A stretch of 63,074 nucleotides of DNA, counting the filler, from Reclinomonas americana ATCC 50394 (lineage: Eukaryota): NCBI GenBank assembly GCA_048213135.1. It is 15 parts of 9 records of this genome, joined end to end, with 100 filler letters (N's around TTAATTAATTAA, not from the genome) between each part and the next. Parts side by side here need not be neighbours in the genome. Positions count along the whole stretch, not along the records: positions 28,696 to 37,103 come from PS015790.1; 14 more parts are not named here. The stretch is one strand, 5' to 3'. Positions 2,161-47,461 of this stretch are shown piece by piece. Within the stretch, counting starts at the first letter, position 1. Each line of letters begins with the position of its first letter. Both the position numbers and the translations under genes were made by a program. The notes under the pieces are model-generated. The model ran no database searches and was not told the DNA's origin. It saw only the letters and a list, made by a program, of their open reading frames with translations.

Positions 2161-4475
<2,315 letters not shown>

Positions 4476-16000: not shown

Positions 16001-16704
16001 ATGGTCAACAAGCTGTTTACAGAGGTGCGTGCTGAAATCCATCCATTCGCGTCTGTGCGCGTCTGCCGTTGCTCATTGCACGAGCCGCACAGGTCACCAA
16101 GCACTACAAGGTACCGTGGAAACTGCAGACGCACGCATTCGCCAGCGGCGAAGAGCTCCTTGCATTCGCGGCTCGGTTCGTGGAGGACCCACGCGTCAGG
16201 TCGCAATCTGTTCGCGACCTGGTAGTCACCGGTACGCATGTTGTTGTGTTTTTTTGTGTGTGATCTTCACATGTCTCTCACTTTGCTTTCGTGTCGTTTC
16301 TCTCTCGTTTTTCGCGCATGTCCATGCAGACTTTCAAGTTGCGTCTCCCGCTTGTGCTGCTGTACTTCTCACTCTTTCTCTATCCTAAACCTAATCTCGC
16401 GCCTCGCCAGATGCCCGGCCTGAATGGCGAGGAGACGGCACAGCAGTTGAAGCGACTGTTTCGCAATGCCCAGTTGCCCGTTCCGACTGTGGTGTGCCTC
16501 ACCGGCGAGGACGTATTCTACGAGCAGCGCCGTCGCGAATTCACGCGACCTGCTGGAGAGATCGAATCGCCGAGTGGCCTCGATGGCGTAATCCTGAAAT
16601 CAAAGGAGCGCGAAGAGCTCACGGGCATCCTCGAGCGTCTCGTACATCGGGCGCGCGGGGCATGCCACGCCGTAGGTGCATCCTCGGCACAAGTTCGTTC
16701 ATGA
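13088..16704 (+). CDS. Hybrid sensor histidine kinase (HisKA-HATPase-REC); 5' exons before the 13412 gap are tentative
   Basis: H-box FISRVSHEFRGP, N-box VMSNLLSNA|VKYT, G1 VTDTGVGI, F-box IFEPFEQ, G2 GVGL|GLSICR, long S/A/P-rich linker, receiver VFVCDDN..DLVVT|DFQ|MPGLNG..VCLTG..ILKS; TGA 16702-16704. Confidence 0.92.
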
Positions 16705-20103: not shown

Positions 20104-23100
20104 CTGCGCGATCGATTGACGAGGCGCTGGCGATGTTGCCGCGTGGGCAGGCGTGGGATGTGGAGTCGGTGACCAACGAGGTGGGCGATGAGAGCTCACA
20201 AAATCACGCGCACTCTCTTTCTCAATCTTGTGTGCGTGTGCGCGCGCGTCAGCTCNNNNNNNNNNNNNNNNNNNNNNNNNNNNNNNNNNNNNNNNNNNNN
20301 NNNNNNNNNNNNNNNNNNNNNNNNNNNNNNNNNNNNNNNNNNNNNNNNNNNNNNNNNNNNNNNNNNNNNNNNNNNNNNNNNNNNNNNNNNNNNNNNNNNN
20401 NNNNNNNNNNNNNNNNNNNNNNNNNNNNNNNNNNNNNNNNNNNNNNNNNNNNNNNNNNNNNNNNNNNNNNNNNNNNNNNNNNNNNNNNNNNNNNNNNNNN
20501 NNNNNNNNNNNNNNNNNNNNNNNNNNNNNNNNNNNNNNNNNNNNNNNNNNNNNNNNNNNNNNNNNNNNNNNNNNNNNNNNNNNNNNNNNNNNNNNNNNNN
20601 NNNNNNNNNNNNNNNNNNNNNNNNNNNNNNNNNNNNNNNNNNNNNNNNNNNNNNNNNNNNNNNNNNNNNNNNNNNNNNNNNNNNNNNNNNNNNNNNNNNN
20701 NNNNNNNNNNNNNNNNNNNNNNNNNNNNNNNNNNNNNNNNNNNNNNNNNNNNNNNNNNNNNNNNNNNNNNNNNNNNNNNNNNNNNNNNNNNNNNNNNNNN
20801 NNNNNNNNNNNNNNNNNNNNNNNNNNNNNNNNNNNNNNNNNNNNNNNNNNNNNNNNNNNNNNNNNNNNNNNNNNNNNNNNNNNNNNNNNNNNNNNNNNNN
20901 NNNNNNNNNNNNNNNNNNNNNNNNNNNNNNNNNNNNNATGCAACTGTTGCCGAACCGTCACTGGGAGGATGTGCGTGCGGAGTTGGGCGCGCTTGTCAAC
21001 GATGTGCAGGTGAGTGAGGGGAGAGATGAGAGGAGGAGCGATTTTCGCCGAGAAACAAAGATTCTTTGTGTTCTTTCCGGCACAGCTTGGGCCCCTTCTT
21101 CTTCTTCTCCTTCTACTTCTCCCTCCTCCTCTTCGCTTCCCTCTCCTGCTCCACTCACTCTTTTGTGTGTGCGCGCTCCCTGGCTTACCTCTCCACGCGT
21201 CCGCGCATGGCCTCTGCTTTTCATAATTTTTGTGATGGTGTTGGTTTTTAGCAAGCTTCCTTTCCATCGTCGTCTGTTTCTCGTGAACTGCATGTCTGTC
21301 TTCGCGACCCTTCTCATCATCGCTGCTTGCTGGTGGTGCTGGTGGCCGCTGTACGGAGTGCGATCCGAATGCGAACAAATGATTGCTCGATTTCTCTTTT
21401 TTCCCTTTCCCCTTAAGGCCGGCGAGCAGTTCGAGTCTTGCGCTTCTGTCTTTCTTGTGCTAGCGTCGTTCAACGTATCGTCCGCTGTGCCTGCTGGGTG
21501 TCGTGTGCTGTCCCCGTTTTATGAATGCTGGCGCTTGTCGGCCGAACAAACCATGGGTCGCTGTGCTCACGACTCCCGTCTGCACAGCACATTGAATTCG
21601 ACAAGACGCGCGACATTGAGATGGTATCGATGAACCAAGTTGCGTGGATTCACCTGACGTTTTGCATTGCCGTGGCCACGAAAATAACTAACCCACTTGT
21701 CCACAGTCGTACCTTCGTCGCCTGATGGAGCCTGTGGCGGCGCTGCAGGAGGTAACATGCGCGTGGTTGTCTGTTACTCTGCGCTCTCTGTGAGGTACTT
21801 ACCGTTACTGTGTGTGTGCGTGCGTGCGTGCGCATGTGCAGACCATGATGGGTCCGGGCGACGTGCCATCCATGATGCCACTGGTTGGTGTCCGCCGTCA
21901 CTCTCTTTCACTGCATCTTGTTTTTGCCACTCACCTTTTCTTGCACTGAACAGCAGCAGAACCGTGGAGGTCCGGGCGGCCTGGCTAACGGCGGCATGGC
22001 GCAAAACATACCGTCGATGATGTCGACAGGCGGCGGCGATGCTTCGGCGGCGGCCGGCGGTTTCGCACCTCCATCGCAAATGCGGCAGCAGCAGCAGCAG
22101 CAGGTGACGCATCACTGTCGCCGAATGGAGCTTGCGTGTGTCTTGCCGTTTGCTTTCTGCTCACTGTTTGTTTGTTTTATTAGGCCAACGGTCCATCGTC
22201 GCTGCCGGGCTCACGCAAGAGGGAGCCGGCGGCGCCTCTCAATGAGTCCATGGGTGCACCGGTCAGCAAGCGTCGCAACTCGACAGAGCAGCCGGCGGCC
22301 GTGCAGCCGCAACTCGCACCAGGAGCGATGGCCATGTCGCCGTCGATGGACAATACGGCTGCTGGTGTGGCTTCCGCTGTTGCCGGTGGCATGCAGTCGC
22401 CGTTTCCAAATGCTGGGCTGGCATCACACCTGGCCGGCTTGCATGCCATGTACGGTTCGCTACCTGGCGGCTCACATGTTGCCAGTCAATTGTCTCGCAT
22501 GGCATCTGCCGTGCAGCTGACAGCGGCGACGCCTACAGGTGGTGGAACGTCGCCGCTGTCGCAGTCGCCCTCGTCGGCTTCATCGGGAACGGCTGCTGCC
22601 GCCGCCGCCGCTGCCGTTGCTGCTGCGGCGGCGGCTGCAGGGGTCCCGCAGCCGGTGGGTATGCCCTCGCTGCAGCAGCTTGAGACCGGCATGTCTGCCG
22701 GTACCTTCAGCGGGTTGCCAATGCTGCCGGGAGCTCAGATGCAGTCTTTTCATCCGTCACCACCGCCTGGCATGATGTTCCCGCCCTCACATCAGCAGCA
22801 GCAGCAACAACAACAACAACAACAACTGCACCAGCAGCAGCAACAGCAACAGTTTCAGCTCGGTCGGTCACCGGCCATCTCCAACGGTGGCGTCGGCTCC
22901 AGCAGTTCACCTTCTTCATCGCCCGGAACCTCGCCGACTGGGATCATGTCGGCCAATACACCGGGGACGACGGCAATGACGGCGGCCGCCAATGGTGCTG
23001 CCGCTGCTGGTGCGCTGTCCAGCATTGCCGACATGCTCGGTGCCGGCAACCAGAACAGCGTCAGTGCCACCGTGGTCACGGGCAGCTTCCTCTCGCCTCA

Positions 23101-24303: not shown

Positions 24304-24335
<32 letters not shown>

Positions 24336-24949: not shown

Positions 24950-27468
24950 CTATCGGTTCTGCGGCCGACCACGACCACCGGCTGGTGGGCCGGAGGAGGA
25001 GGCGGCTGGTGCGGCGGCCGAAGGCGCCTGCTGTGTCTTCTGATAGGCGCTGAGCCAGTTGCGCTGCTTCTCCTCTGTCTGCCGAATGGTGAACGCGGTG
25101 TGCTCGTTCATGGCCACGCGGATGTCGACCACTTCCTTCAACATGCCTACTCACACGCACTGCTAAGCGACCGGACTCTCCCACAAACAGAACAGCAGCA
25201 CTGACCGCAAAACACTGCCCACACGCCACCGCGCTGTCCGGCCTCGTTGGCCAACACCTGCGCGTCCTTCTGAATCTCGTGAAGCAACGACGTGCCGAGC
25301 TGCGCTCGATCAAAAGAAAGCAAGAAACAGTCAGTGACAATGGTCAGGCGCAGGAGTAAAAAAACAGACACATACTCGAACCTCCAGCAGTTGCAGGGGC
25401 GACAGGTGACGGTTCCGCGGATTGAGGTACTTGATGTCGGCCTCGGTGGTGCGCTGCCAGATGGAGAGCACGCGCGAGAACACCTCCTGTGCCTCCGGCG
25501 ACGAGAGCAAGATCTCGTCATCTGACAACACAATGTGCTCAAACTCGTCGGCAATGTCGGCCGTCTCGTCCAGTGCCTCCGCCGTCTCCGGCACATCAAT
25601 GGCCGACACGTCGCGCAATTGCTGTGCCCGGAGTCAGTTTGGTGAGTGGAGCCCGTCACATCTCTGTCTTGTATCATGTGAGAGACGCAACCTCCTCCAC
25701 GGCGCCGCGCTGCTTCATGGACCACAGAATCTTCTTTGCACGGGCCAACTCTGCTTCCCTCTCGTCCAGCTCCAAGTTCAAGTTCTGTGACAGAGTTGGC
25801 ACACATCGATCAAACACACCGGCTCGGCACCTCCCTCACCTCCACGTCCTCGGCAAACGTGTCAAACTGCGCCAGCTGTTCTCGCAGCATGGCCACTTCA
25901 CGCTCCAACTGTCGGTGCGACGACACATGAGACAACGAAGCGCAACCTCTCCTACCTCTCGCTGTTCACGGCCACTCACCCGCTCGTTGGCCTTTTGCAG
26001 CTCCTCGTTCTCGGTACGCACCGTGACACTCTCCTCGGCCACCATCTGCAGCGTCTTGGAGCCCTGCTCAATCTCGGTCTCGATCCGCGTCACCTCCGCC
26101 TCCAGCTCGCGACTCTCGTGATCGGTGCCCTTCAGCCGCTCAATCTCCGCTCGATACGCATCCACCTCACGCAGCAGCTCCTCCGCACGGTCCTGCAACC
26201 GCTTGTGCGCCTTGTTGTTGTGCTGCGCATATATCAGCATGGTCAGCGGAGGCGATCATCACCTCGTGTCGCGAAATGAACGCGCTGTTTCACCTCAATC
26301 GCCTGCAACTGCGACGTCAACTGCGCATTCTGCTCCTCCAACAGCTCGCGTCGCTGCTGGCACATGAACTCCGACTCTTGCACCGAATGCAGCTGATCGC
26401 GCAACTCCCGGTTCTCTCTCCGCTGCTCATCGAGCTTCTCCGTGAGCACCACCTGTAGATGGGAGTGAGTGGTGCACACAAGCGCAACAGTGTTCACGAA
26501 AAGGAACGCGAATCACCGTGTCGGTGTCGGCCATGGAGGCAACAGCAGTCACCAGGAACAACCCGGCCTCTGACGAATGACGACAAGTTGTGAGTCAGAA
26601 ACGAAGATGATGATGATGACGATGAATGACGAAAGGTCAACTCGCACGCACCAAGTGCCGCACGCAGCGACGCCGACAGCTCACCAGACGCTGCGCGTAC
26701 GAGGACAACACACATAGAGAGAGCGCGCGAGATGTGTGACGACATGTCCGTGTGCGCACGCAAGAGACAACACCTTGCCCCACTCTCGCACTCACCCTCA
26801 TGGTGCTTGCCAAACACATCCTGATGCAGTCGCGCCAACCGCTTGATCTCCGCCTGCGCCTGTGCCACACTCGTCACTTGCGTTGTCGTCGAAGTTGTCT
26901 GCTGCTGCTGTTGCTGTTGTTGTTGCCGCTCAGCCGCCGCCGAGTGACGTGCCATGGCCTCGGCCAGACGTCCCTTACGCTGCGGCGTGCCCAGTGCATC
27001 CAACACGGGCGGGATCACTCCATCATCATCATCATCATCATCTCCCACAAGATCATCATCATCATCATCCTCTGCTGCTGCTGGCGGTGGTGGCGGCGGC
27101 TGTGGCAACGACAGTGTGTTTGGAGGCGAGGCCACAGCCACGGCCACGGCGACCTTTGGCGCCGCAGCCACTGCCACACGCGATGACGATGATGCAGTCA
27201 CTGGCGGCAACATAAAGTCGCCACTGCCCGCATGATGAGGATCGTCGTTGATGACTGTGCCGGCGTAGCGCATGGCCGAGCGGCGATTGGAGGGAATGCC
27301 ACTGCCGGTGGCGTCGTCGGTGAGCTCTATTCTGCGTCCGCTGTCGTCGTCGCCGGTGCGCGACGAGAAGGCCGGTGAGGACGGCAGTGGCGAGTCCAGT
27401 GGACCGACAGACGCGGCTGCGGCGGCTGCGGCTGCGGCGGCTGTACCACGTGGTGCGCGCTCCGTCAT
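24950..27468 (-). CDS. Uncharacterised coiled-coil protein with a low-complexity N-terminus
   Basis: GT-AG exons with heptads (LTEKLDEQRRENRELRDQL; LEAEVTRIETEIEQG); stop at 24950. Confidence 0.7.
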
Positions 27469-30063: not shown

Positions 30064-33000
30064 ATGAGCAGTGACGAGGAGAACGACGAGGCGTGGCAGG
30101 ATGATGACGACGACGATGATGATGTCGATGATGAGGAGGAGGATGAGCGAGGTGCGTGAGATGGCCTCCACAAACAAACAAACACGCACACTCGCGCACG
30201 CACGCAGGGAGAGCGGCGTGTGAGCAATGCACACTGTGTGCGTGTGTGTGTATGTGTGCATGTGGCTGTGAGCGAGAAGAAGAGCGCGTGAGTTTTGTGT
30301 GTGTGTGCGCGCGCAATGTTGAGTTGTCTTTGTGCGTGTGCGTGTGTGCAGCGCGCCCTGTGAAACGTGCCAAGACAAGTGCGACCAAGAAGAGCAAGAG
30401 TGCACGTGGTGGCAAAGGTCGCGGCGGTGGTGGTGCTGGTGGTGCTGGAGGAAGTGCGGCAGGTGGTCTTGGTGGCATGTTTGTGAATGTGGAGGCGGAG
30501 GCGAGTGAGGACGACGAGGACGATGAGGATGAGGAGGATATGGATGATGAGATTGAGGCGGATGAGATTGTCAAGGTGGAAATCGACCTCTGTGTGAAGG
30601 CGACACAGAGACAGAGAGAGAGAGAGACTGATTGTTGTGTTTGACAGGATTTCATTGTGCCCAATGATCGGCGACCGCGGCGGCAGAAGAAGAAGCATGG
30701 AGGGCGTGGGGATGAGGAGGATGAGGATGAGCCGTCGTTGTTGGAGCTGCTGCGGCAGCGGCGAGAGGATGATGATGCGGTGGGCGGACCGGGCATTCGT
30801 GGTATCGATTCGGTCATTCAGCGCCTTCAGAGTCGTGGCGACGACGACGAGGACGAGGATGATGTCATGGCGATGGATGGTGCGTGGGGGACACCGAGGG
30901 AGTGAGAGGAGGGATGCAGGGCCGGCTTGCTGATCTGTGTGCGTGCGTGTGCAGAGATTGACGAGGAGGAAGAGGCGGAGCTGGATAGGCGAGATCAGGT
31001 CGACTATCCGACCCCACACGACCCGAAACTGTTTATTATCAAGTGCAAGGTGTGTTTTTGTGTGTTGGTGGTGCCACTCGTGTCCTCCACCATGCTCACA
31101 CACACGCGTGCGCGCGCGTAGCCCGGCATTGAGCGCGAGGTGACGATGCGATTGATGGCCAAGGCGTCGCGCATGATTGCGGCGAATGGCGGCGAGTTGC
31201 CACCCCGTTGCATCACCTCTGTGGTGGCTCTCGACGCCATGACGGGTCGCATCTACGTCGAAGGACCCAACGACGAAGTCGTCAAGGAGGTGTGTGTGTT
31301 GTGATTTAGTCTTCGTCGCCGTGTGTGTGTGGCCGGCCTCCTCACGTGCGCCGTCGATGCACACAGTTCCTGCGTGGTGTGCGCGACTTGTCGACGTGGA
31401 ACATGCAACTGGTGCCGGTGGACGAGCGTGTGGCCGGCGTCAGTGTCGGCTCCAAGAAAGTTGTAACGGCGTTGAAGGACGGCCAGTGGGTGCGCTTCAA
31501 CCGCGGTGTCAACAAGGGCGATCTGCTGCTGGTGATGCAATACGACGCGGTCCGCCAAATGGCCACGGTGAGGTTCGTACCGCGTGTGGACCCGCTCGAG
31601 GATCAGAAGCGGCAGGCTGCGGCGGCGGCTGCGGCTGCGGCGGGTCGCAGCACGAAGAAGCGAGGGCGCGCCGTTCGTCCACCACCGAGAATGGCAATTC
31701 GTTCCGACTTTGACGCATCGACGTATGCGGTGGAGCCGAAGCCTGATGGGGGGTTTTCGTGGCATCACCACTCGTTCGACAAGGATGGCTACGAGATCAA
31801 GACTGTATCGATCAAGGTGCGGCTGGTGGGGAAAGGGAGGGATGGGAGGGGGAGAGAGAAAAGGAGGGACAGAGAATGATTGACAATATCATCAGTCGGT
31901 ACTCTGGTCTGTGTGGCTTTCTTTTGCTCTCTCTGTATGTGTGGGTAGGAACGAGTTGAGGGGGAGAGGGAGTGGGTGAGAGTTAAGAGGGGAAGCGAGC
32001 GCCTGAGAGAGGGATAGAGATTGTGGCAGTGGTACAGCATCTGTTCTTGGTGCTTCGTTGTGGTCTTTCTCTCTGCGCATGTTTAAGGAAGAAAGAGTTG
32101 AGAGGACGAGGGAAAGGACGTGTGTGCGAGAAAGAGAGAGTGCGGCACATCGTCGTTGCTTGGTGCCTTTGTCTGCGCGCTCTCCATACGTGTGCGTTTG
32201 TATGAAAATGAGAGGGATGGTGATCGTAGTATTAGTTCAGTCAATCGGTGCCCTGGTTTCTCTCTCTCTCTCTCTTCATGTGCAAGTGTGTGTGTTCATG
32301 TCTGTGCGTGACAGAGAGAAAGTGGTGCAGGGTCAGTCAATCTGTTCCTTTGTCTGTCTGTCCTGTCTCTCTCTCTCTCTCACTTTCTCTCTCTCTCTCT
32401 CTTTCCCTCTCTCCACTTTCCCCCGCTCCCCCTCTCCCTCCTTCTCATTTGTGTGCACCCCTCTCACACCGTCCATCACACAGACACTGGAGACGAGGAA
32501 TGTGGAGCCGGCACTCGATGAAATGAAGAGATTCCACGAGGGTGCGGTGGCCAGCGCGGCTGCGGACAAGGGCTCGGGACAGAGCACGCGTGACATGCTG
32601 GCGCGCTCGGCGGTGAAGCGTCAGATTGTCTTTAGCACCGGCGACTCGGTCATTGTGACGTCGGGTCAGTACAAGAACCTGTCGGGCGTGGTGCAGGCCG
32701 TCGACAAGGACACTGTGTCTATCATTCCCGCCGCTGGCTCACAGTTGCCTGTTGCGTATCTTGCTTGCTATTCTGATTCCCCTGTGCGCGTCGTGCTTAC
32801 AAAATGCTGGCGGTTGCAGGGCTCGATTGTGGTGGAGAAATCCTTGATCGACAAGTACTTCCAGAAGGGCGACTCGGTCAAGGTGCTGGCTGGCCGCTAC
32901 GCGGGCGAAACCGGTATGGTCATCAAGGTGGAAACCACACGTGGTGTCACAGTGGTCACCGTGCAGAGCGACTTGTCGACCGAGAAGACGGTGCGTTTGT

Positions 33001-35925
33001 TTCTCTTGTGCTCAGCGACGTACGGCACCTGATGATGATTGCGATGCAGATGGAAGTGTTTGCCGCCGACTTGAAGTTGTCGCGCGATACCTCTACCGGT
33101 GTCGAATCGGCCGGCAAGTTTGCGTTGCATGATTTGGTGCAGTTGGAGTTGCGTATTGTCTGCGAACCCCCCATGGTGTTGGTCATCGACTGATGGTGAC
33201 GGCGCAGTCCCGAGATGTGGGGCATCGTGGTTCGCTTCCAGACGGGAGTCATTGGCGTGATGAATGTGCACGGCGAGGTCATTGAGAAGACGCCGGCTGA
33301 GCTGGAGTTGAGACGCGGCAAGGACTATGCGATTGACCATACCAAGAACCAGTTCCGCCAGAATGACATTGTGCGTGTCGTCGAAGGGCCGAACAAGGTT
33401 TCGTTCCCGCCCGACTGCATCGCATGGTGAGTATTGTTGTAACCCGCGCTGCTGTGCAGGGTCGTCAAGGCACCGTGAAGCACATTTACAGGGCCTGGGT
33501 GTTTGTGCACTCGCGGGAGGTGCCAGACAATGGCGGTGTGTTTGTCGTGCGCTCGCACAATGTGCAAGTGCAGGGCGGAAGAGCAGACAGCAGTGCAAGT
33601 CGCGGAGCCGGTAGTTCAATGGGACCGCCGTCGGCGATGGGTGGTGGTCGCGGCGCAGGTCGTGGTCGTGGTGCTTTCGGTAGGAGCGCGACCGCCCTCT
33701 TTTGTTGTCCCACGTGTTCGTTTGCTCACAGTGTGTGTCATTTGTTGCAGGCGGGCGCTTCGGCAGGGACGAGTTCTTGTACAAGAAAGTGCGCATCAAG
33801 GGACCCCATCAGTTCAAGGTATGTCGGCAGTGCGGCGCGATCGCGGTTGTGTTCACTCGCACATTCTCACACTCCGGTGGCGGTGCGGTAGGGCTACGCC
33901 GGCATGGTCAAGGCCGTCAACGACGACATGTGCACGGTGGAACTTGAATCTGTTTTCCGATCTGTCAATGTGCCGCGTGACAAGCTGCTCTTGGTCAATG
34001 CGTTGCGTACGATGAGTGATGCCACAGCAAGGGTTGACGCCGCTCACAGCTATGTGTGCATGCGTGTTGCAGAGAGCGCACGTCATTTGGTGGTCGCCGC
34101 CCTGGCGAAGACTTTGGTGGCAGTTTCGGCAGCTCAAATATGGACCACGGTGGCTCGATGGGATCGTGGATGCCTCCGCGCACACCGTTGCACGATGGTT
34201 CCGGTGCGTACAATAGTAACCCTCGTGTTGTTGCCGGCAGCTGTGTGTCCCTGTTTGCTTACCATATTCTCTATCCTCTCGCGCACAGCTACGCCCATGC
34301 GCGAAGATGGATCGTCGACTCCATGGGACCCGCGTGCTCCCAACACTCCGGCACGGTGTGTCATGTGCAATATGTCGCGCATCTGTTCAAGGACGAGAAA
34401 CTCACGCACCTCCTCCGCATATCGCAGCGACTCAGACGGCGGAGGCGCCATGTGGGACGCCCGCGTGCCGAACACACCGCGTCACCAGTTGCGTATGATG
34501 AGGGAGGGATGGGAAGGGAACTGAAGTGAATGTGCATGTGTGACTCACACTGTGCGTGCGCGTGCCTCGCAGCTCCGATCGCTTCGACTCGCCGTTCGAG
34601 ATGGGAGTTGCGTGGCTGGAGTTGCCCTTGCACTCCCCCTCTTGACGCGTTCGTCTCACAAGTCTTGCCCGCAGACACCGTACTCGTCGTCGACTCCGAG
34701 CATGCGCGGCAACTCGTCGAGCACACCTGTTGGCTCCTTCTCGGCGCCGTCACCGGCGATGAATGCCTACAGCGACTCGTATGACACGGCCTCGACGCCG
34801 ATGAGTGCGGCCACTCCGTCCATGGTGTCGGGCGTCACACCATCGTCGCGACCAATGGCGCACACGCCGGGCATGCCGGGCATGGGTGCACCGACGCCGG
34901 GTCACACGCTGGGTTTCACCGCCACCACACCGAGCTTCTCGGCACACACACCGATGATGGCTCACACGCCGACCATGACGGCACACACCCCGGGCATGGG
35001 TGCACCGACTCCGGGCATGGGTGCGCCGACGCCCACCATGTCGGCACACACCCCCCTGTCGGCGCAGACACCGGGCATTGGCCTGCACTCACATACACCG
35101 GCCATGGGTGGCATTGGTGCTCCGACACCCGCCGTCAGCTTCGGGTACACGCCCAGCGACACGCCGGGTGTTAATGTTCACGGCTACGCGGCGGCCACTC
35201 CCGGCTACCACTTGCCGAGCGCCGCTGCGGCTCCCACACCGGCCTTTGGTGGTTCTGGTCATTACTCCGCCACACCCGCTGTCGGCTACAGCTCTGCGCA
35301 CACACCTGCCGTCGGCTTCAGTTCGTCGCATACGCCCGCCGTCGGCGGCAGCGGCGGATACTCGTCGTACTCACCAGCTCCGGGCGGTTTCCATCCGGCA
35401 GGCTCACCAGAGAGCTACGGAGGGTGAGTGGCTGTGCGGGAGAGTGATGGGGTTTCTGGGTGTGACTTTGCTGCTGACATTCCCTGTGGGTAGTGTGTCG
35501 ACGCCGGGCAGTTCGACCGTGTCGGAGGGTTGGTTGCAGCCGGGCATGGTTGTGGAGTACAATGGGCAGCGTGGAGTTGTCTTGGAGGTCAAGGACGAGT
35601 CGCGATCTTTCAGTGCCAAGGAGTGGATAGCCACCATTCGCACGGTTCGTGCTGGGTGGTGCGATATGTGTGTGTGGTTTCTTAGGTGCTGTGTTTTTCA
35701 TTCTTTCGGTGTGCACAGAGCGACGGCAGGGAGATACTGGCGCCCATTCACGATGTGCGACCGGTGCCGCCAAACAAGATTGGCGACACGGTGGCGGTAC
35801 TGAGTGGTGCACTGGCGGGACGAGTCGGCAAGGTGTTCCGCCTGTCGGCAGCCGACTGCACACTCGACATTAGCGGTCAACATCACACGGTGCACGTGCG
35901 CGATTTGGTGGTTATGGGGCGATAG
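30064..35925 (+). CDS. SPT5: Transcription elongation factor SPT5 (DSIF large subunit)
   Basis: Acidic N-terminus (FVNVEAEASED), NGN (PTPHDPKLFIIKCK|PGIERE..GRIYVEG), multiple KOW motifs (FSTGDSVIVTSG; KYFQKGDSVKVLAGRYAGETG; VRIKGPHQFK|GYAG), TP-rich CTR, C-terminal KOW; TAG 35923-35925. Confidence 0.97.
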
Positions 35926-37487: not shown

Positions 37488-39166
37488 CTATACCCATATT
37501 CGCTGACAGAAGCGGGAGCCCTCCGACAAGCACGAGCATTGCGTACGATAGCGCTTGATGTAGTCGCCCGAATAGCCATAATTGATCGTCAGTTCCTCGC
37601 CGGGATGGATGGTCCGGCGAGACCGATAGGCCAAGTGCGGCAGCGCCATGCCGCGCTCCGTGTGCACCGCAATGCACGACAGTGACGGGTCGCACGAGTG
37701 GTTGAGCCAGCGAGACACGTTGCCACGGAACATGGCGTCGATCGAGTACTTGCAACCGCCTTCGGCGTACTCTAAGTCGTGCACATACGAGATGCCGTCG
37801 CGATCCGAAATCATGCATCGCCGCTCAGCCTCCAGTGGTGGCAGCAGTTCGCCAGCGTACTCGCAGATGAGCGTGTTCGGAGGAATTGGACTCGACTCGG
37901 CCAGCACCACACCCCATCCTTTGCCGACTTTGTGCTCGATGCGGACTTGCACTTGCAGGCCACCAATCACGCGCCGATTGCGTCGAAATCCACGCTGCAG
38001 CAGCAGACGGCGGTCGGCAAAAACGACCACGGCAATGAGGAAAGTACAAAATCGCGTACCTGCTTCGCGACTTCCAACGACGACAGCGGGCAGCGTGGAT
38101 CCGTGCACTCGAAAGCCCTGTCTGTCACACGATTGTGGAATCGCGGCAGTGCACTCGCCGTGTACGCCGCACGATCCTCGCCAACTGCACCGAGACACAC
38201 ATGCAAGGAGTGATGAGACTGATGCTGCGAAACACACATATGTGGGCACTGCAACAACAATGATGGCGCAACAATTATTGAGTTGGCATACACAGATGGT
38301 GGTACTGACGGTCATTGTCTGCAGGTGCGACACGAGCAACTCGATGGGAAACGAGAAGCCGACAGTGGCCAGCGGGACATACTGGAGGCGGGGATGCCAC
38401 AAGTCAACATCTCTCATCTCTGCTGGCGTGCGACGAATGACACGGAGACGCACATCAATGTACGGAAAAACGACTTGAGCTCCATTGCTGGACGCCGGCA
38501 GGGGAATCGACTCACGACCGAGGGAGATGTCGTCGATGTAAAACTCGATGCGCTCAGTATTCGACGATGGAATTTCCCCCACCTGCAAAAAGGGAGAATA
38601 GTGGGTGCGTGGGAGCGCGCGACATAGGTGACATGACGAGCTGCTCACCGGCGCCAGAATGGCCGTATTAATCGCCTCAAACACCTTGTTCACGTCTTGC
38701 TCGAGCGTGTGAATCGCTCGTACCAGCGACGGCAACGACGGCAACAACTGCCACGACAGACACTCAGCAAGTGGACTTGTCTCTGTGCATCCGCCCTCCC
38801 CATGAGTCGACGGGTGACAAGATGAGACGCGAGTGACATTGTTACATCGCCGCAACTCGTCTCTGCTGCCCGCTGGTCCTCAAAGTTGTCAATCGTGCAC
38901 CACGCAGAGTAGTCCAGTGGTGTAAGCGAGGCCGGGTACACAAACACTCTGCGACAGCGAATCACTTGCACAGTTAGTCACATGGAAGTGGAAGGAAAAG
39001 GTGAGGTGCCACTGACCTCCTGCACACAAACTCGTGCTGTTGACACACTGCCGGTGCCTGGTCGACGTGATGGACGCGGCAGTGACCGCACACGAGGCCC
39101 ACTGGCAGATCGAAGCAGTGATTGGTTGCAAACACCTGTTTGCGACGGCAAGGTGTGTTAACAACC

Positions 39167-39198
<32 letters not shown>

Positions 39199-41442
39199 CA
39201 CAATAGCGGACCTCATTATCTCTACACAAAGACCAGTCGACGCCAGCGGTGAGGAGCTCTTGCCGTCCAAGAAACAGGCGGCAACGCACACTGGTCACCC
39301 GGCGATTGCGATCCTTCCAAATGTAGACGATGCGCGAAATGTGCTGCCAGTTGGCGTGCACCGGACCACCGAGACGATGGTAGATAAAGTCACCGGCTGC
39401 CGCAAAAGAGGTAAACATAAAGAATCAAGCAAGGAGAGAGAGAGAGGGAGGTTGTACGCAACAGCGATACGTGACAAAGTCGGTGCGTGTCTCGAACAGA
39501 TGCATCTTGGAAAAGTGAATGTGATTGCCCACGAGACGGAACGGGCACAGCAGCAGGGCGTCCTTGAACGACTGCTCCGCATAACAGTGACGCGGGTGTG
39601 ACGGCACAAACCGACCCGGCTGTGCACAGTGTCGGCATCCCACCACCAAGAAGCAACCACAGACGGGCACACACACACACAACACACACGCACCTCACAG
39701 AGTGACGACGGCTGCGCGGGTACATCAAACTCGCGACATTGCTCGGCGGCTTTCATGAATTGGGAGCACATTGCTTGCTGATACCAGCTGTGCAAGGAGT
39801 GAGCGCCTGTGGATTGACTTGGTTTGAAATTCTCTGCATGCGAGACGCAACTCGGAAAACGCGCCTGCTCCACATTCGGGTGCCGGTGGCGGTGGAGGAC
39901 TGGGGAGGCTTGCGTCCGACTCGCAGCTGTCGCTGTCGTGAGCCGTTGTGACGGTGAACGCGTCCGGTAGAAATTCGCTTTCGTACGCTCCCATTGAGCG
40001 GCGTGCCTTGTCCTGTTCTCGTAGAGCATCGACAGTTCGCCACATTGCCTGCATGTGCTCCACGTGGTGCTCGTCGGCCATTTCTGCACAAGAGGAGGTG
40101 AGGGAGACGGTTTCACGGGCGAGGAATACAGAAACTGCAATCCTACGCACCAATGAACTGACGCACATCACAGGCGTCCATGGCCGTCAGAATGCCCGCC
40201 GCCTCCTGCTCCTCCACAATGAGTCGATGGCACGCTGCCTCCAGTTCCATCAGCGTTCCCCACGTCAGCGCCGCGTCGGCATCCTGCTCACAGAGAGGAA
40301 TGTTAGGCACGGGAGCAACACGATGGGAAGCTTTTAACTCACTTGACCAGGTACGCGCATCGGCAGCGAGAACCGATGCCGGAAGCTGACAGGCACCACA
40401 AACATTCACGGTGAGGTCGCGGTGCACAACTCAAAAAGGATAGCCATATCACCTTCCACTCTCACTGGGTGGTCGGTCGGCCCATTGCTCCATGCATGCC
40501 GACAGAAACCATTCCGTCGCACCCTGCGTTGTGCATTGTGCGCGCATCAGCAGGCAAGCACACTGAGCGAGACCAGGACTGTACGCACCTCGAATGTGAG
40601 ACGGCAGAGGGTAAGCAGCTGCAACACTGGCCGGTTGAGGGTGACAGAGAGAGCCACCAAGGTTGCAATATTGAAGCCGTGGTCATGCATGTATTTTTCC
40701 ACCATGGTCTTCTCCAACTGGCACAGATGTGGTGGTTTTCCGTGAATGCTCCTGCGGTGCGGCTTGATGATGAGCTTGCAGACACNNNNNNNNNNNNNNN
40801 NNNNNCCTCCATGAGGCTGCGAGCGAGCGTCTGGAACGACAACACACCGCTCATCAAGCGATGCAGAGTGATCGGAAACCCCTCCCATCTGCACAGCAGC
40901 GTCAGCACGAGTACGCACACGGAAGGGAGGGAGGAGGGAGGGAGAGGGAGAGGAGTACACAACGTTTCCAGTGCGCCGCTCTTGGTCAGCGCCTGCAACC
41001 ACGACGTGACCACGTGAAGCACACTCCGCCTGCTCGCGACCGTGCTGAGCTTCTGCAGCGGCGACAGGTCCTGCATTCGTGTCCACGGCAGTGTGCCCAT
41101 CTGTGCGCGATTCTTAGCGACGAGGGAACTCCAGTGTGCTCACTCACTCACTCACTCACTCGCAGACTCACCCCATCATCGTCGATGGATGCGCTGGCCC
41201 CTGCGTCGCCGCCGCTCGCTGACGATGCCCGTGGTAATGACATGGTCGCCCACAACGAGTGGCGCGAACGCCAGCGATGAGAAAGGGAGGGGTTTCTCCT
41301 CACACACAAGCACACGACGAGGGAGGGAGGACAAGTTCTTTCGTTTTAATAACACCGATGCATCGTCGGAAAAGGGATCACACCCGTCGTCGCTTCCGTG
41401 CAGCTGGGGCAACTGGTGGCTCATCGTCAGCCTCAGCAGCAT
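37488..41442 (-). CDS. SET-domain histone lysine methyltransferase (SUV39/G9a-like) with an upstream BAH-like domain; 5' end uncertain
   Basis: SET: KGWGV..ICEYAGEL..SIDAMFRGNVSRWLNHSCDP..IHPGEELTINYG, post-SET CSC..C. BAH-like: VTYR|SGDFIY..HISRIVYIWKD..VRCRLFLGRQEL..|VFATNHCFDLPVGLVCGHCRV..FVCRR. Confidence 0.8.
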
Positions 41443-41559: not shown

Positions 41560-44500
41560 GTCATCGGTAACATCGTCGGCCTCTTCGGCCTTGGACGACG
41601 CGGCACGGGCGCCGGATCTGTGGCGGTCGACACCAAGTGAGGGAACGGAAAAAGACAAGGATGAAAAGACACGACGATGTGCGCGCAACTTGCCAGTCTT
41701 GCCAGCCTTGCCAGCCTTGCCGGTCTTGCCCGCTCGAGTCGCCTGTTTCTTGGTGGGTGGTGTTGGCGGCGGCGCCTCGTCGTCGGTGACATCACCGTCA
41801 ACCGACTCGGCCTTGTCTTCACCTGCGTCGTCGTCGTCGTCGTCGCCATCCGACTCGCGGGCACGCTTCTTTGACCGAGCGGCGGCAGCCGACGGTGACT
41901 TGCCGGGGGTCATCACTGCACCACGCACGATGTCAGCAATCAGCAAAGGCAGGAACGCCTGCGAGCATACTCACCAGTGGGGCGAACGCCAGATGCCTTC
42001 TCCAGCGAGGCGAGGAAGGAGTCGATCACCTGCAGACGATAGGCAGCCATGCCGACCTTGAGCGGCACAATGGCTGAACGGAATCGCTCCAACCTGCTCC
42101 GCTCAGACAAGTGAGGGCGCATGTCGCAACAGGAGCGAAAAAGCAAAGGCGACGCAACAGCAGCTTGGCATGCTCACGATGGGTGCGCTGCGCGTACGGT
42201 ACCAACCCGGCCAGGAACTCCACATTCTCACCGCGCTTGGCGAGGGCGAATTCCAGACCAGAGCTGCACGCGTGACCATGAGCGCGATGGTTCAAGGCAG
42301 GAAAACATCAAAACACACACACGTACCGCACAATCTCCGAGACATTGGTGCGCAGCTTGTCCTTGGAAAACTGGTGCGACTTGCTGAGGTTGACGGCGAG
42401 GCCAACAAAGTCGGCATAGAACTCTGCCACACCACATCCCGTCAGCAAATACCTGTGGGGGGGTGGCAACATGTAGGCACTACGCCGACTCACCCATTAT
42501 GGAGTCCTCGTCGACAGCACCGTCGGCCGCCTCCACATTCTCCAGCGTCTCGCGACACCGCACAAACTCGCGCTTCATGGCCTCCACCTCGGCAATGCCC
42601 TCCTCACTCGGCTCCTCCCTCTTGAGGGTTTGGAAAAAGTGCTTGAGGCCTCTGTGTGCACATGCGAGTGGGTTCAGGATGCACCAAGTGGATGATAGGG
42701 GACGAATGCAGGCAAAAACGCAACAGGAACACACGCGTCGACGCCTCGGGACCCTTGCGGTGCATGAGTTGCTGGCGGTGGTAGTGTGACAAGACGGCCG
42801 ATGCGTGCGCCACACTTATGTGCTGTCGGAGTACGGCCTGGGGCGGGCGGAGACGAACACAAGTCAGCGAGCGCAGCACCTACGGTAGCAGTAGCGCACG
42901 CATGCGCGCACACACACCGCGCCGAGACCACGAATCAGATCCATCTTCTTGTCCCACCGCTCGAAACCAGTGTACAGATCTCCGTCCTCGATCTCGGCCT
43001 CGGTGAATCCGTTCTCATCTATTCAGCGTGACATGTTGGTCTCAGACCAGACGTAAAGAAATAGATGATACACGGTCGCCTACCCTTCTCCAGGAACTCG
43101 CCAAAGAACACAATGATTTTGCGTTCGAGTGGAGCCGCCGGTTCGAAGCGCAGTGAGGCCGGCTGCTCGGCACCACCAAACAGCAAAATCAAGTTCAACA
43201 GCACGCATGTTGCCTGCGACACTGGCGCGTGAGCAAAGCGACAAAGAAAAGAAAAACACGCAGTCGACTCACCAAGTGTTGTACCGGTTCGCGCACATCA
43301 TCAATCAGAGCCTCCATCAAGGTCACCACAGACTGGCGTCGCTCCACAAACGCGGACACCCTGGCACCTCACGTCAGGATAACGACAGAGAAAGAAACCA
43401 ACGGCGAAAGAACGGAACTTGGCGTCACGAGCACTGCCACCCTCGCCCTCCTCCAGCAACTGCACCATGTCAACAGTCTCCCACGACAGAATCTGCAGCG
43501 CAGACTGCATGGCCAGCACCAGAATCTACACAACAGCAGTCACACACACACACATGTGACAAACTGCGGATTTCGAAAGACAATTTACCTCGCTGACAAG
43601 GCCACTCGGCGTCGACTCCTCCATCTCCTTCTTTCGGTGGTACTCCAGCAGCTTGAGCACCGGCTCCAACAGTGCACCCTCGCTGAACGAGTCGACCAGA
43701 TTCACGTGGCGCAGCACGGCCAGCAAGCGTTGCAGATTGCAAAAGAGCGCCATGCGATCACGCTTGTGCGCACTGGCACCACGACTCTACACCACGCACT
43801 CGTGAGAAGGCACAACGAAGGTGCATAGGCAGGTACTCCGACAGCAGAACCGACCGTCACGGAGTTGACGGAGGAGGGCAGCTTGGAGCGGAAGGGTGCC
43901 ACCAGGGCCTCGTACTGTTCCGACGCCGTCTCCTTGAAGGCGTGCTCCTCCCCAAACAACGCATGACGGAAACAGGCCGCTGCTGCAGCGTGCACATCGG
44001 CACGGGTGGAGCGCCACATGGCACTGGCGGCAAACGCCAGCACATCCGACAGTTCCTGCAGCAAGCAACGGATTGAGTCGTCGGCACCAAACTACACACG
44101 CACACACACACACAACTTGCCGTCGGCGATCGCACCTTTTGCTGCTTGAACTTGGCGAACGACGATATCGGCAGGCACGGGAACAGCGACAACAGATGCG
44201 CCACGGGGTCGCCATCGCCACGCACACACTCCAGCATTTGCGACATGGAGCCGGTCATGAGACGAATGCACTCGTCGGGCGTCTCCGGCTCATCGGCCGC
44301 CACACTCTCTCCTTTCTTGTCCCACAGCGGAGCTGGCCACATGGGAACGCCGAGGAAGCGCTTCACGGCGGCCACACCGAGACGCACCAGCATGAACTCG
44401 GGTTTCTGGGAGAGCATGGTCGACAGGTAAGAGATGGCAGTGGAAGACCACAAAGCAAGTGTGTGGGGAGAGATGCACCAGTGCGTCGCCGACAGCATCG

Positions 44501-47461
44501 ACCATTTCCGGAGCTTCGCTCGAGTTCTCCGCACCGACTCTCTCGGTGACCGTCGTCAGCACTTCCACCACTTTGCTGACGTTCTGTAGTACGAAGACAA
44601 GAAGAATCAGAAAATGGGGAAAAGGAAGACGAAGAAAGTGTGCGATTACCTGCAACGCCTCGGAAACGCCGCTCATGGCGTCGACAACGTAGCACGCGGC
44701 AAGATCGTTGCCCGGCCAGGCAGCCAACTGTCGTCGCGCATCGTCGTCATCATCACCACCACCTTCGCCACCGGCAATGGGAGCGTGGTAGGACAGCGCA
44801 AACTCGGCCAGCGCCTCGAATTCGACACGCTCCACATCCACCGATTGCTTCACACTGCGTGCGCTCTGCTTGCGTCCTCGCTTGCCGCCTTCCCCACTTG
44901 CACTGGCCGCAGCAGCAGCAGCGACAGCTTCGTCTTGCTGCTCCGCCACCATGGCCTCGACACGCGGCTTCATGGCATACCGGTACACAAACGGTGCGAC
45001 GGCTCGACGGACGCTCGCGTCGTCGTCGAAAGTGAGTCGAACGACGGCATCCAGGCGCTGTTTTCAGAGTGGAGGAGGAGGAGGGAAGTTAAGAGAAGGA
45101 GGAGGAAGAGAGGAAGTGGGAGGAGGGAGAAGATGGAGGAGAGGGAGAAGAAGAAGAGAAACAAGGGGGCGTACCGTGCGCATGTCGGCGAGGGGATCGG
45201 CCTTGGCATTCACTGGTTTGAGCGCTCGGCCCGACGATGAGGCACGGTCGGGGAGGAGGCCAAGTCTGCATTTTTTGTTCATCACGATCGTCAACAACGA
45301 AGACCTCGCGTCAGCCAGCACGCTACCCCGCACACCACGCAACTCCACGAGACGAGTGAGCAGGCCCATGGCCAGCTTGGCCACTTGCAGATCAACGTCG
45401 GCCACCATCTCCACCAGACGCGGACCGAAACGCTGCAGGAAGCGGGCAAGCTTCGGAATGTTGGCCTCGTTCCTGTAGAGCAACTCAAAGACGCCCAGGG
45501 AGGCCAGACGAACGCTTGCATCCTGCGCGATAGAAGACTCAGCACACATCAACAAGAGAGAGAGAGAGAGAAACGCGCAAGACCACGCACCGCATCGTTC
45601 AGAGTCCAAGCGGCGTACTTGAGCATCTCGTCCTTGAGGAAGACGGCCGGGTGATTGGCAATCCACTTGCCGCTGTTGGTGATGGTGTCCTCGCGAATGG
45701 TCGCCGCACTGTCGCGGTACCGCCGATCCACCACGCTTTCGCACAGCGTCTTCATGAGTTCGTCCAGGCGTGTGAGATCGGCCTCGGCCGCGGCGCTGTG
45801 TAAACGGAGGTAAGTGTGGAGTCATGGGTGTGGACTGCAGTGGCGACGACGACGCACTTTGATTTCTTCGCCGCCGCCTTGTCGACCTGCTTGCGCAACT
45901 CCTGCGCCACCTCCACGCACTCGGCCACGATCGCAAACAGGGCGACACAGGCCGTGTGGCGGTAGGCACGGACAGGGGATCTACGAGGGGTAAGGGTGGA
46001 AGGGTGGGAAGGGGGAGAAGGGAGAGAGTGAGAAAAGGACGTGCGTGCACGGCTGACAGCTGCACGTGGTACGTGGCAGTGGACGCACCCACTGAGAATG
46101 ATTAGCCACGCCAGCACGGTCTCGGAGAATGTCTCGTCGAACAGAGTCTCACGCGCCGACTTGCTGATGAGCTTGGACCAGAACTCGACAAACTGGCGAC
46201 GGAAGTTGCGACCGGCGGTGCCCTTGGCCACCAGTGGATACGCGGTGGTCGCGGGTGGCTGTGCATCTCACCGATGAGTTTTGTCTGCAGTCAACACACG
46301 AGCGCCATCGGCACACACACGCACCTCCTCCAGGTCGGCAATCGCTCCGTCCATGTCGATCTCCTCGTCCAGCACTTGCTCGACAGAGAGCGAGCCCTTG
46401 CCGCCAGCCGCCTGCCAACAACGTTCACGAGGTGAGTCGCACGCACCACCATCATAACAGAGAAAGAAAGAAAGGCACGGCGCAACTTGAATCACAAAGT
46501 TGACGAGCTCCGTCATGGCCTTGTCCTTGGCCTGCCCGTACCGGTGCAGCCAGTCGGTGATGACGGCGACGGTGGCCGGTGCGCGGCCGGATTCGAAGAG
46601 CATGCCTGGGGAGGGGAAGGAGAAGGGAAGAAAAGAGTGAGAGAAGAAAGACGACAGAGGAGAGGAGAGATGACGAATGCATACGCAAGCCAGGGAGATG
46701 TCTCGAGACAAGAGAGGATGTGGGAAACGCAGCAACGAGAACAAGACGGTGCAGCAGGAGATGAAAGCGAGGAAGAGAAGAGAGAAAGAGAAACAGTGAA
46801 CATGCACAGCGGGACAGCGAGATGAGGTAGAAGAAGAAACGAGCAGAAAGATATTGAAGAATCAGAGGCACGAACGAGAGACAAGTGATCCACTCCCTCA
46901 CCATGCAGCGACTTGTTGGCGGCACTCTTTCGTCCTTTCGGAGAACCTCCCGCCGCTGATGCATCCTCCGCCGCTGCCGCCGCACCCTTCTTGCCGCGCT
47001 TCGCCACCGGCTTTGGAGGCGGCATTAGCGCATCGTCCGTCAACGCCGGTGTCTTCTTGCCGCGCTTGCCAGCCGCCGCCTGCGCCTTCTTGCCACGAGG
47101 CTTTCTCTTGGGTCGCTCCTCCTCCTCGTCCTCGTCTTCATCCTCTTCCTCTTCCTCATCGTCGTCCTCATCATCAGCATCGTCATCACTCTGCTCCTCT
47201 GCATCGTCTTCGTCGTCCGCGTCCTCGGGCGGTGAGCTCGGTCCACTCATCACCTGACTGGACGATGAAGATGCCAAGGAGGCTGACGCGCAGACAATGA
47301 TGATAAGGAGAAGGAAGAGGGGGAATGCGAGAGGCAATTCGTTCAGCATTACCTCGCTGACGAGCGGATCGACGCGGTCCAGGTGAATCCACTTGCATCT
47401 CCTCCACGGGTTGTGCCTCCTCTTGTTCTTGTTCTTCCTCCTCCTCCTCCTCCACCACTCG
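41560..47461 (-). CDS. SCC3: Cohesin subunit SA/STAG (Scc3); both ends in gaps
   Basis: DWLHRY..AMTELVNFVIQ|AAG, YPL, WLIILSG|SPVRAYRHTA, RRYRDSAATIR..GKWIANHPAVFLKDEMLKYAAWTLND|..VRL, FLQRFGPRLVEMVADVD. Confidence 0.92.

Follow-up and report, generated by a model that had tools for sequence, protein, structure and literature searches.

A Frequent Second Class of 5' Splice Sites, GTT[G/T/C]CG, in Introns of Reclinomonas americana and Its Possible Recognition by U1 in a Shifted Register

We have analyzed the introns in a stretch of 63,074 nucleotides (nt), filler included, from the genome of Reclinomonas americana ATCC 50394 (GenBank assembly GCA_048213135.1), hereafter called the window. Besides the main class of 5' splice sites, or donors, in which G occupies position +5 of the intron, our gene models show that there exists a second donor class with the motif GTT[G/T/C]CG, which is frequent, has an exon-side consensus of its own and is otherwise like the other introns. 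The introns concerned appear to be ordinary U2-type GT-AG introns with a second consensus, (C)A·GUUGCGU (the dot marks the exon-intron boundary), of which GUUUCG and GUUCCG are minor forms, and they would make up roughly a fifth of all introns. A first-pass annotation of the same DNA had listed 24 such sites and proposed that this organism routinely reads them in a register of U1 small nuclear RNA (snRNA) displaced by one base, or else with a variant U1 or U6. Below we present the evidence for the class, the support for individual junctions and the possible modes of its recognition.

A frequent second donor class with its own exon-side consensus

The motif is present at all 24 listed sites on the strands given for them, and our recount of the last exon base reproduced the earlier figures (A 15, T 5, C 2, G 2). 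The hexamer GTTGCG occurs 73 times on the two strands of the window against 55.5 +/- 6.8 expected, a count reached in none of 100 shuffles. The frequency of the class was estimated with a Viterbi gene finder that requires GT..AG and scores self-trained codon usage, a CTNAY branch motif, the YAG acceptor and intron length, but nothing at donor positions -3 to -1 or +3 to +8 (hereafter the agnostic pass). By construction, every modelled intron of the class has the form GT..AG and leaves the frame intact. Gene models scoring at least 15 yielded 141 introns, of which 98 pass a quality filter; donors of the class account for 25 of the former (17.7%) and 20 of the latter (20.4%), whereas only 1.65% of all GT sites in the window (121 of 7336) have the motif. 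This is an enrichment of about 11-fold (binomial p 1.5e-18 for n=141 and 2.2e-16 for n=98), while the class is absent from the 18 introns predicted on the reversed sequence and from the 13 in discarded overlapping models. The idea of a routine second donor class used by about one intron in five is thus upheld without any scoring of the donor motif itself.

A donor-informed pass, in which a two-class donor model was also scored, returned 118 introns, namely 74 with G+5, 34 of the class (29%) and 10 others, and is usable as an upper estimate only because it is circular. The agnostic pass recovered 15 of the 24 listed sites, the informed pass 21 and either pass 22, both missing those at 4405 and 47628 on the minus strand; a further 10 sites of the class, absent from the earlier list, were picked by the agnostic pass. 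Members of the class are spread over 9 contig pieces in the agnostic annotation, and over 13 pieces and 13 of the 18 intron-bearing gene models in the informed one. As to the heptamer GTTGCGT, the agnostic annotation uses 13 of its 28 occurrences in the window as donors, with 7 more lying in the sense orientation within genes, 2 antisense and 6 outside genes.

In the agnostic set, the class has T at +3, C at +5 and G at +6, with G (80%), T (16%) or C (4%) at +4 and T (68%), C (16%), G (12%) or A (4%) at +7. Since the definition of the class itself fixes C+5 and G+6, we rechecked their invariance without it on all 39 agnostic donors beginning with GTT. Six of these have G+5; among the other 33, 25 carry CG at +5/+6 and eight are scattered, G+6 being found without C+5 only once. 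The agnostic pass picked no GTTGAG or GTTGTG donors, and its G+5 donors include GTGAG 18 times, GTGCG 18 times and GTGTG 11 times.

On the exon side, position -1 is A in 13, T in 7, G in 3 and C in 2 of the 25 agnostic donors of the class, and position -2 is C in 12, A in 6, G in 6 and T in 1. The loss of G-1, earlier apparent by eye, is very pronounced: 3/25 in the class against 56/71 in G+5 donors (Fisher p 4.2e-9), and 1/34 against 66/74 in the informed set. GTT donors with G+5 keep G-1 (5/5), so that it is the register, and not T+3, which goes with this loss. Altogether, A-1 is present in 52-59% and C-2 in 38-48% of the class; its position -1 differs from position -1 of the main class (p 5e-8) but not clearly from main-class position -2 (p 0.06).

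In all other respects the two kinds of introns are alike. Introns in the window are short (~55-90 nt) and have a branch motif of the type CTCAC, CTGAY or CTTAC about 20 nt upstream of CAG. Scored alike for both classes by the gene finder, the median length is 70 nt in the class and 70 nt in ordinary introns, the CTNAY motif is found in 20/25 versus 54/72, the distance from the branch A to the 3' end is ~19 versus 19.5 nt, and the acceptor has C at -3 in 23/25 versus 60/72. A difference is seen in position relative to the reading frame, for introns of the class lie after the second codon base in 11/25 cases against 13/72 (agnostic; p 0.034), or 16/34 against 10/74 (informed). This bias probably arises from the combination of A-1 with G/C-rich third codon positions.

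Independent evidence for individual junctions comes from homology, above all in the SPT5 gene, in which all six listed sites were picked by the agnostic pass. The spliced SPT5 model runs from ATG to stop over 1262 amino acids with 19 introns, six of them of the class, and matches a profile built from 53 full-length homologues, taken from a set not exceeding 40% identity to the query exon, in one domain with 641.6 bits and no gap at the junctions of the introns starting at 32751, 33148 and 33398 (introns are named here by their first base; see table 1). We then rescored against this profile all GT..AG pairs within +/-45 nt that keep the open reading frame (ORF), intron retention included where the frame allows it. 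At 32751 all 19 alternatives score lower (best at -4.1 bits), and the profile alignment has a one-residue insertion three residues upstream but no 23-residue insert. At 33148, where the junction codon is the D of LVQLD in a gapless match to LVqLd of the profile, all 13 alternatives are lower (best at -5.9 bits). The intron at 33398, with donor GTTTCGT, is exact because positions of Pfam KOW4_SPT5 run on across its junction: the final residue of exon 33209-33397 is also where positions 1-23 stop, and positions 24-55 begin with the very first residue of exon 33460-33678. All 10 alternatives are lower here (best at -21.2 bits). This intron contains, 29 nt from its start, a perfect main-class GTGAGT (33427-33432, plus strand), which is apparently unused and the use of which breaks KOW4; the donor-weighted informed pass wrongly took this decoy instead of the homology-supported donor.

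The remaining SPT5 introns of the class lie in an unconserved region, where the test carries no signal: the best alternative to 34002 scores +4.1 bits, 34488 has only two ORF-keeping alternatives (+0.8 and -1.4 bits) and 34607 has four (best +0.9 bits). The profile test is informative only inside conserved domains, since in the acidic N-terminal part it ranks alternatives above some of the ordinary introns (by up to 17 bits).

The same gene has a long intron of ~660 nt (31817-32483, plus strand) rich in CT/GA and GT repeats, its other introns being 59-200 nt long. The donor of this long intron is uncertain, GTGCGG at 31817 beating GTGGGG at 31826 by 8.4 bits versus homologues.

A further exact junction is that of intron 9348 in the NSA2 gene, because exon alignments continue from residues 1-23 through the split codon of residue 24 to residues 25-63 (exons 1 and 2, respectively) in 4/4 listed solved NSA2 sequences. 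For the second NSA2 donor, at 9049, the acceptor had been suspected to fall in or next to a gap, and this proves well founded: the AG at 8997 that the model uses is probably wrong, given that it leaves a three-residue stub while NSA2 homologues run on, and the true acceptor would lie beyond the contig end. In the eIF4B/4H-like gene, Pfam RRM_1 24-59 begins at residue 2 of the exon downstream of intron 17936, and the flanking exons align weakly to eIF4H (2dng_A; E 0.92 and 0.21), upstream residues 25-55 to 9-39 and downstream residues 9-34 to 50-77, continuous within one residue. In the gene for cohesin SA/STAG, the exon upstream of intron 46486 aligns to cohesin SA-1 through its last residue (query 10-39 of 39 to 97-126); a search of solved structures gave no match for the exon downstream. 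Pfam searches with short exon pieces from further junctions found no family for any of five pieces.

Several points weigh against such a reading of the data. All gene models were made in this analysis, from one 63-kb window of concatenated small contigs. Of the 141 agnostic donors, as many as 44 remain outside any class, and many such calls are probably wrong, often an in-frame neighbour of the true site, as with 34216, which was picked though GTGCGT sits at 34204. In unconserved parts of SPT5 the profile test prefers some alternatives, for ordinary introns too (+16.5 bits at 30576 and +17.0 at 30880). Moreover, a GT..AG intron and a TT..AGN intron placed one base later share the frame and are indistinguishable from sequence. 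Could the class then be unreal, arising from misplaced sites, from motifs picked by eye by chance, or from an assembly error adding a T to GTGCGT? We consider this very improbable. Even if the agnostic pass did not pick 9 of the 24 listed sites, and another frame-keeping GT is at hand at several of them and other sites (12275, 39851, 45343, 56597, 62606), the 11-fold enrichment was obtained with both controls at zero. The assembly is fragmentary and introns are known here from sequence alone, but four junctions (32751, 33148, 33398 and 9348) are seamless versus homologues at single-residue resolution, and at 33398 the motif is retained over a perfect GTGAGT that would disrupt the domain.

Three specific origins were rejected. 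An inserted T would lie within the intron and cannot alter position -1, yet position -1 differs (p 4e-9). U12-type introns are discounted on the basis of the GTT[G/T/C]CG donor and of a CTCAC branch motif as in the main class. An introner-like origin finds no match in the introns of the class, which by eye share no sequence beyond their signals.

Possible modes of recognition by U1

The consensus of the class, CAGUUGCGU, is what the main consensus (A or C)AG·GUGCGU becomes when it is moved along by one base and given U in place of the first intron G; a shifted register is therefore most likely. In such a register, the 5' end of U1 would pair one base further upstream than usual, with intron G+1 replacing exon G-1 opposite U1 C9, A-1 facing U10 and C-2 facing G11, whereas U+2 would be left mismatched against C8. 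Cleavage would still take place at GU once U6 and U5 take over. If U1 had G at position 5 (ACGUAC or ACGCAC for ACUUAC), a Watson-Crick pair with C+5 could offset the C8 mismatch. That a shifted register together with such a changed U1 may explain the class is a proposition for which we see the chances as evenly balanced.

The original claim of a shifted register is sustained on the exon side, where A-1 and C-2 fit a shift by one onto C9, U10 and G11 of U1, but not in its pairing with the standard U1, for which the predicted duplexes are no better than those of random GT sites. A plain shift on the standard U1 appears insufficient because no GTTGAG or GTTGTG donors were picked, although GTGAG is as common as GTGCG in the main class. 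We infer a U1 with G5 since C+5 never varies and the standard U1 end would pair with the class no better than with random GT sites; C+5 would face pseudouridine in the standard U1, which gives no reason for its invariance. A variant U1, which the first-pass annotation had offered as its alternative, thus seems to fit better than a plain shift on the standard molecule.

Calculated duplexes are in line with this. With the standard end AUACUUACCUG, donors of the main class reach -6.6 to -7.15 kcal/mol, and 6/25 donors of the class fold with their downstream part in the +1 offset (median -1.4, below random GT sites). We have scanned the 1024 variants of U1 positions 4-8, among which the standard end ranks about 836th when each end is judged by whichever class median is weaker. 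The G5 end AUACGUACCUG gives medians of -5.3 kcal/mol for the class, -7.3 for the main class and -3.65 for random GT sites, with the +1 offset in 19/25 donors of the class, while AUACGCACCUG (-7.3, -9.0 and -4.85 kcal/mol, respectively) could serve both classes.

A number of observations nevertheless speak against this proposal. The median duplex of the class with the standard end AUACUUACCUG is -1.4 kcal/mol in any register, versus -2.2 kcal/mol for 400 random GT sites. The energy scan is weak evidence, for hypothetical U1 ends rich in G and C improve binding to every GC-rich site. Pairing with U10 leaves unexplained both T-1 (28%) and the scarcity of G-1, which could wobble with U10; A-1 is more frequent in the class (52-59%) than A-2 in ordinary donors (31-39%; chi-square p 0.04-0.06). 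No snRNA was found in the window with Rfam, which gave nothing at gathering scores and six chance-level matches at E<=1. Furthermore, a GUGCGU consensus alone does not imply a changed U1, because Thecamonas and Mamiellales keep the standard U1 despite C+4, according to the part of a preprint that deals with them (10.1101/2022.06.08.495308).

Two other mechanisms would account for the same motif. In the one that we regard as quite improbable, G+1 stays on C8, one U of +2/+3 is bulged and GCGU pairs like main-class positions +3 to +6, so that every main-class pair is kept at the cost of one bulge. Registers with a bulge at +2/+3 have been predicted for human sites, as tabulated in PMC4856993, and U6 probably must accommodate the extra base in this manner anyway. 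With G5 ends of U1, 3-5 of 25-34 donors do fold in such a way, G+1 pairing with C8 and the part downstream being displaced by one. However, a bulge leaves position -1 opposite C9, where G-1 should stay favoured, against the 3/25 versus 56/71 that is seen; the enrichment of A-1 and C-2 matches U10 and G11 only after a shift, and with the standard U1 end no register, bulged ones included, beats random GT sites.

The other mechanism, a dedicated second U1 variant or other snRNA with a 5' end fully complementary to CAGUUGCGU (for example ACGCAACUG), would provide one U1 per donor class. It agrees with the invariance of C+5 and with a motif nearly invariant over seven bases and sharper than that of the main class; the best binders of the class among the 1024 variants are AUACGCAGCUG and AUACGCAACUG (both median -11.3 kcal/mol), and variant U1 genes exist in humans, according to the part of PMC13172311 that bears on them. 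Yet the energy scan finds both classes already served by a single U1 with G5, or with G5 plus C6, and branch site, acceptor and length are common to the two classes; we therefore hold this mechanism to be unlikely.

Returning to the shifted register with a changed U1, its full form would be that of two fixed registers, served by a changed U1 or by one of two variants having G5, perhaps along with C6 or A8. Roughly one intron in five would then be read one base out of step, with the consensus CA·GUUGCGU, an obligatory C+5:G5 pair and a bias toward the second codon base. We put this scheme forward tentatively, as a possibility that is somewhat doubtful in its entirety.

Further sites and neighbouring genes

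The sites of the class are collected in table 1. Some call for comment. The gene with the site at 4405 on the minus strand is low-scoring and was modelled by neither pass. At 47628, on the same strand, read-through meets a stop and both passes treat the site as the gene end. If donor 12275 is used, the Pfam Tim17 match, which ends at residue 59, ends together with the exon. Only one of the pair of donors at 54898 and 54871 is usable. The junction of intron 62606 falls in a variable acidic segment of the SMC-family protein, where homology has no say.

Table 1. Donor sites of the GTT[G/T/C]CG class in the window. Exon end and intron start are given 5' to 3' on the strand of the gene. Passes: A, agnostic; I, informed; C, a first crude pass. 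"New" marks sites outside the earlier list.
Gene	Coordinates	Strand	Exon end	Intron start	Length (nt)	Pass	Remarks
	1137..1228	-	cct	GTTGCGTA	92	I only	
	4340..4405	-	gct	GTTGCGTG	66	by eye	After short ATG exon; CACTCAC branch motif, GCGCAG acceptor
NSA2	9043..9049	-	atc	GTTGCGTG			Donor only; upstream exon ends at NSA2 residue 63
NSA2	9170..9348	-	aca	GTTTCGTC	179	I only	GTTTCGT donor
Tim17 family	12275..12367	+	gaa	GTTTCGCC	93	I	A took GTGTTTTT 9 nt downstream, same frame
	13974..14144	+	ggt	GTTTCGCC	171	I only	New; low quality, weak
	16338..16410	+	caa	GTTGCGTC	73	I only	
eIF4B/4H-like	17354..17420	-	act	GTTGCGCG	67	A	
eIF4B/4H-like	17516..17602	-	gct	GTTTCGTT	87	A	New
eIF4B/4H-like	17866..17936	-	gga	GTTTCGCT	71	A	RRM intron
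eIF4B/4H-like	18105..18174	-	cca	GTTTCGTC	70	A	New
eIF4B/4H-like	19032..19132	-	cca	GTTGCGTC	101	A	
	21639..21706	+	caa	GTTGCGTG	68	A	New
	25622..25691	-	gag	GTTGCGTC	70	A	Among the few with G-1
SPT5	32751..32819	+	cct	GTTGCGTA	69	A	In frame without stop; CTTAC branch motif, GCAG acceptor
SPT5	33148..33207	+	gga	GTTGCGTA	60	A	
SPT5	33398..33459	+	aag	GTTTCGTT	62	A	Decoy GTGAGT inside
SPT5	34002..34072	+	tgc	GTTGCGTA	71	A	GCTCAC branch motif
SPT5	34488..34572	+	cca	GTTGCGTA	85	A	GACTCAC branch motif
SPT5	34607..34674	+	gga	GTTGCGTG	68	A	TCTCAC branch motif
SET domain	38185..38272	-	att	GTTGCGCC	88	I only	New
SET domain	38783..38856	-	cga	GTTGCGGC	74	A	New
SET domain	39397..39462	-	gct	GTTGCGTA	66	A	
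SET domain	39788..39851	-	cga	GTTGCGTC	64	I	A took GTGGAGCA at 39873, same acceptor
Cohesin SA/STAG	41618..41689	-	caa	GTTGCGCG	72	A	
STAG	42094..42158	-	gct	GTTGCGTC	65	A, C	New
STAG	42652..42724	-	cct	GTTGCGTT	73	A	New
STAG	43361..43418	-	caa	GTTCCGTT	58	A	
STAG	45266..45343	-	gga	GTTGCGTG	78	I only	A took GTAGCGTG at 45326
STAG	46412..46486	-	caa	GTTGCGCC	75	A	
	47622..47628	-	caa	GTTGCGCG			Donor-like site; contig ends 66 nt on, ATCTCAC motif near that end
	49305..49364	-	cga	GTTGCGGC	60	A	New
	49682..49750	-	aca	GTTGCGGC	69	A, C	New
	54898..54957	+	cga	GTTTCGTA	60	I	New; A took gcg before GTTGCGAT at 54871, same acceptor
	55087..55177	+	tct	GTTGCGTG	91	A, C	New
	56597..56722	+	aac	GTTGCGTG	126	I only	New; A took GTAGGGTG at 56615, same acceptor
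SMC family	62543..62606	-	gaa	GTTGCGTT	64	I	A took GTTTTGAG at 62601, other acceptor

Among the 10 donors of the informed pass that belong to neither class, several have CG 2-6 bases further downstream, for example those at 22104 (GTGACGCA), 26516 (GTGATTCGCG), 21752 (GTAACATGCG) and 30576 (GTGGAAATCG). Such a displacement could be a matter of chance, come from wrong calls or represent a similar but longer offset.

The window consists of eukaryotic DNA of ~57% G+C, in which small contigs are connected through 14 artificial linkers, each reading N44-TTAATTAATTAA-N44 (at 2061-2160, 4961-5060, 13412-13511 and 11 further places), N letters totalling 4642 in linkers and other gaps together. Because the window is a concatenation, gene order across linkers has no meaning and adjoining pieces need not adjoin in the genome; contig ends cut several of the genes. 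The lineage seems to be poorly sampled. The nearest named homologues of SPT5 are those of Mastigamoeba, Batrachochytrium, Planoprotostelium, Blastocladiella and Clastostelium, Mastigamoeba and further amoebozoans thus being among them, with 33-43% identity over one exon; in a word-based search of an SPT5 piece against longer proteins, none of 1925 candidates reached E 0.001. When metagenomes were scanned with a conserved exon of the SMC-family gene, 80 loci were kept, with a top identity of 58-64%, and no close relative emerged for a comparison of orthologous introns.

Other genes of the window show features of their own. In the STAG gene, the Pfam STAG profile skips from 46 to 56 across a predicted intron of 108-129 nt (46109-45981, minus strand), which points to exon ends that were probably misplaced, or else to a short deletion in the protein. 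The region 13512-16591 (plus strand) has matches to HisKA and HATPase_c, with profile coordinates running on from exon to exon (20-53, a 23-residue exon, 77-109), and looks like a eukaryotic hybrid histidine kinase gene with a long low-complexity insert. Two contig pieces at 21586-24783 (plus strand) encode a very long low-complexity protein rich in Q, P, M and A, with few introns and no Pfam family. ATP-synt_C, the proteolipid subunit c, is matched by two sets of exons on the plus strand, 5457-5774 and 6757-6837, which represent two repeats within a single V-ATPase proteolipid gene or else belong to two genes; across the junction 5534-5611 the match is seamless, profile position 41 being followed by 43.

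Significance and comparison with known systems

Few RNA-RNA contacts in eukaryotes are as conserved as that by which U1 recognizes the 5' splice site. Register shifts appear to be known as exceptions, and not as a fixed class that holds a fifth of the introns of a genome. A full-text literature search, most subscription journals being outside its reach, retrieved no account of GTTGCG or GUUGCG donors as a class in any organism. If our proposal is correct, R. americana would provide the first case of a genome with shifted-register recognition as a constitutive, sequence-defined second donor class of the major spliceosome. It would then offer a natural experiment on the uncoupling of U1 pairing from the subsequent selection of the cleavage site by U6 and U5, on whether U1 and donor sites co-evolve, and on how exon sequence limits intron positions, given that the class sits after A or T. 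On the practical side, gene finders trained on GTRNGT would put about one donor in five of this organism in the wrong place.

The coexistence of two intron classes with distinct donor motifs in one genome recalls U12-type introns, which have an RTATCCTT donor and a TCCTTAAC branch site close to the 3' end. The class described here differs from them in its GTTGCGT donor, and it shares the CTCAC branch motif, the distance of this motif and the CAG acceptor with the main class in the window.

Closer parallels may be drawn with human shifted-register 5' splice sites, in which all U1 pairs are moved by one position (Roca and Krainer 2009, as summarised in PMC4856993). To judge from that summary, these too have GUU at +1 to +3 and match poorly in the normal register, become consensus-like once slid by one base, G+1 then standing in for G-1, and are cut at GU. 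They are rare, the human sites that use any validated noncanonical register amounting to about 1.5% (PMC4856993), whereas the class found here comprises ~18-20% of introns, its register being deduced from composition. It also differs from the human sites, as they are summarised there, in having a near-invariant GUUGCGU, an exon-side consensus of its own and poor pairing with the standard U1. Bulged and asymmetric-loop registers (Roca 2012; Tan 2016, PMC4856993), including the 68 human sites with predicted bulge +2/+3 registers in Table 3 of PMC4856993, resemble our class in that one more nucleotide than usual separates GU from the G paired with U1 C4. The sites in that account keep the exon-side consensus, in contrast to the loss of G-1 here.

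Changes in U1 itself that complement the donors are reported for two other lineages in the part of the preprint 10.1101/2022.06.08.495308 that concerns them. Entamoeba has a U1 with AACAAAC and GUUUGU donors, and Mastigamoeba balamuthi a candidate U1 with ACGUAC and a preference for GUGCGC donors, their 5' ends differing from ACUUACCUG. R. americana resembles them in its lineage-specific donors with C+4 and possibly in G5 of U1; in these two lineages, however, one normal-register consensus is reported, two coexisting registers not being described in that part of the preprint. A last comparison is with the copepod Eurytemora affinis, for which GA and GG donors are reported in ~12% of introns (PMC5714493). 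On the evidence of that section of the article, it likewise has a non-standard donor type at double-digit frequency that trips gene modelling, but GT itself has changed there, whereas R. americana retains GT and has the remainder of the motif displaced.

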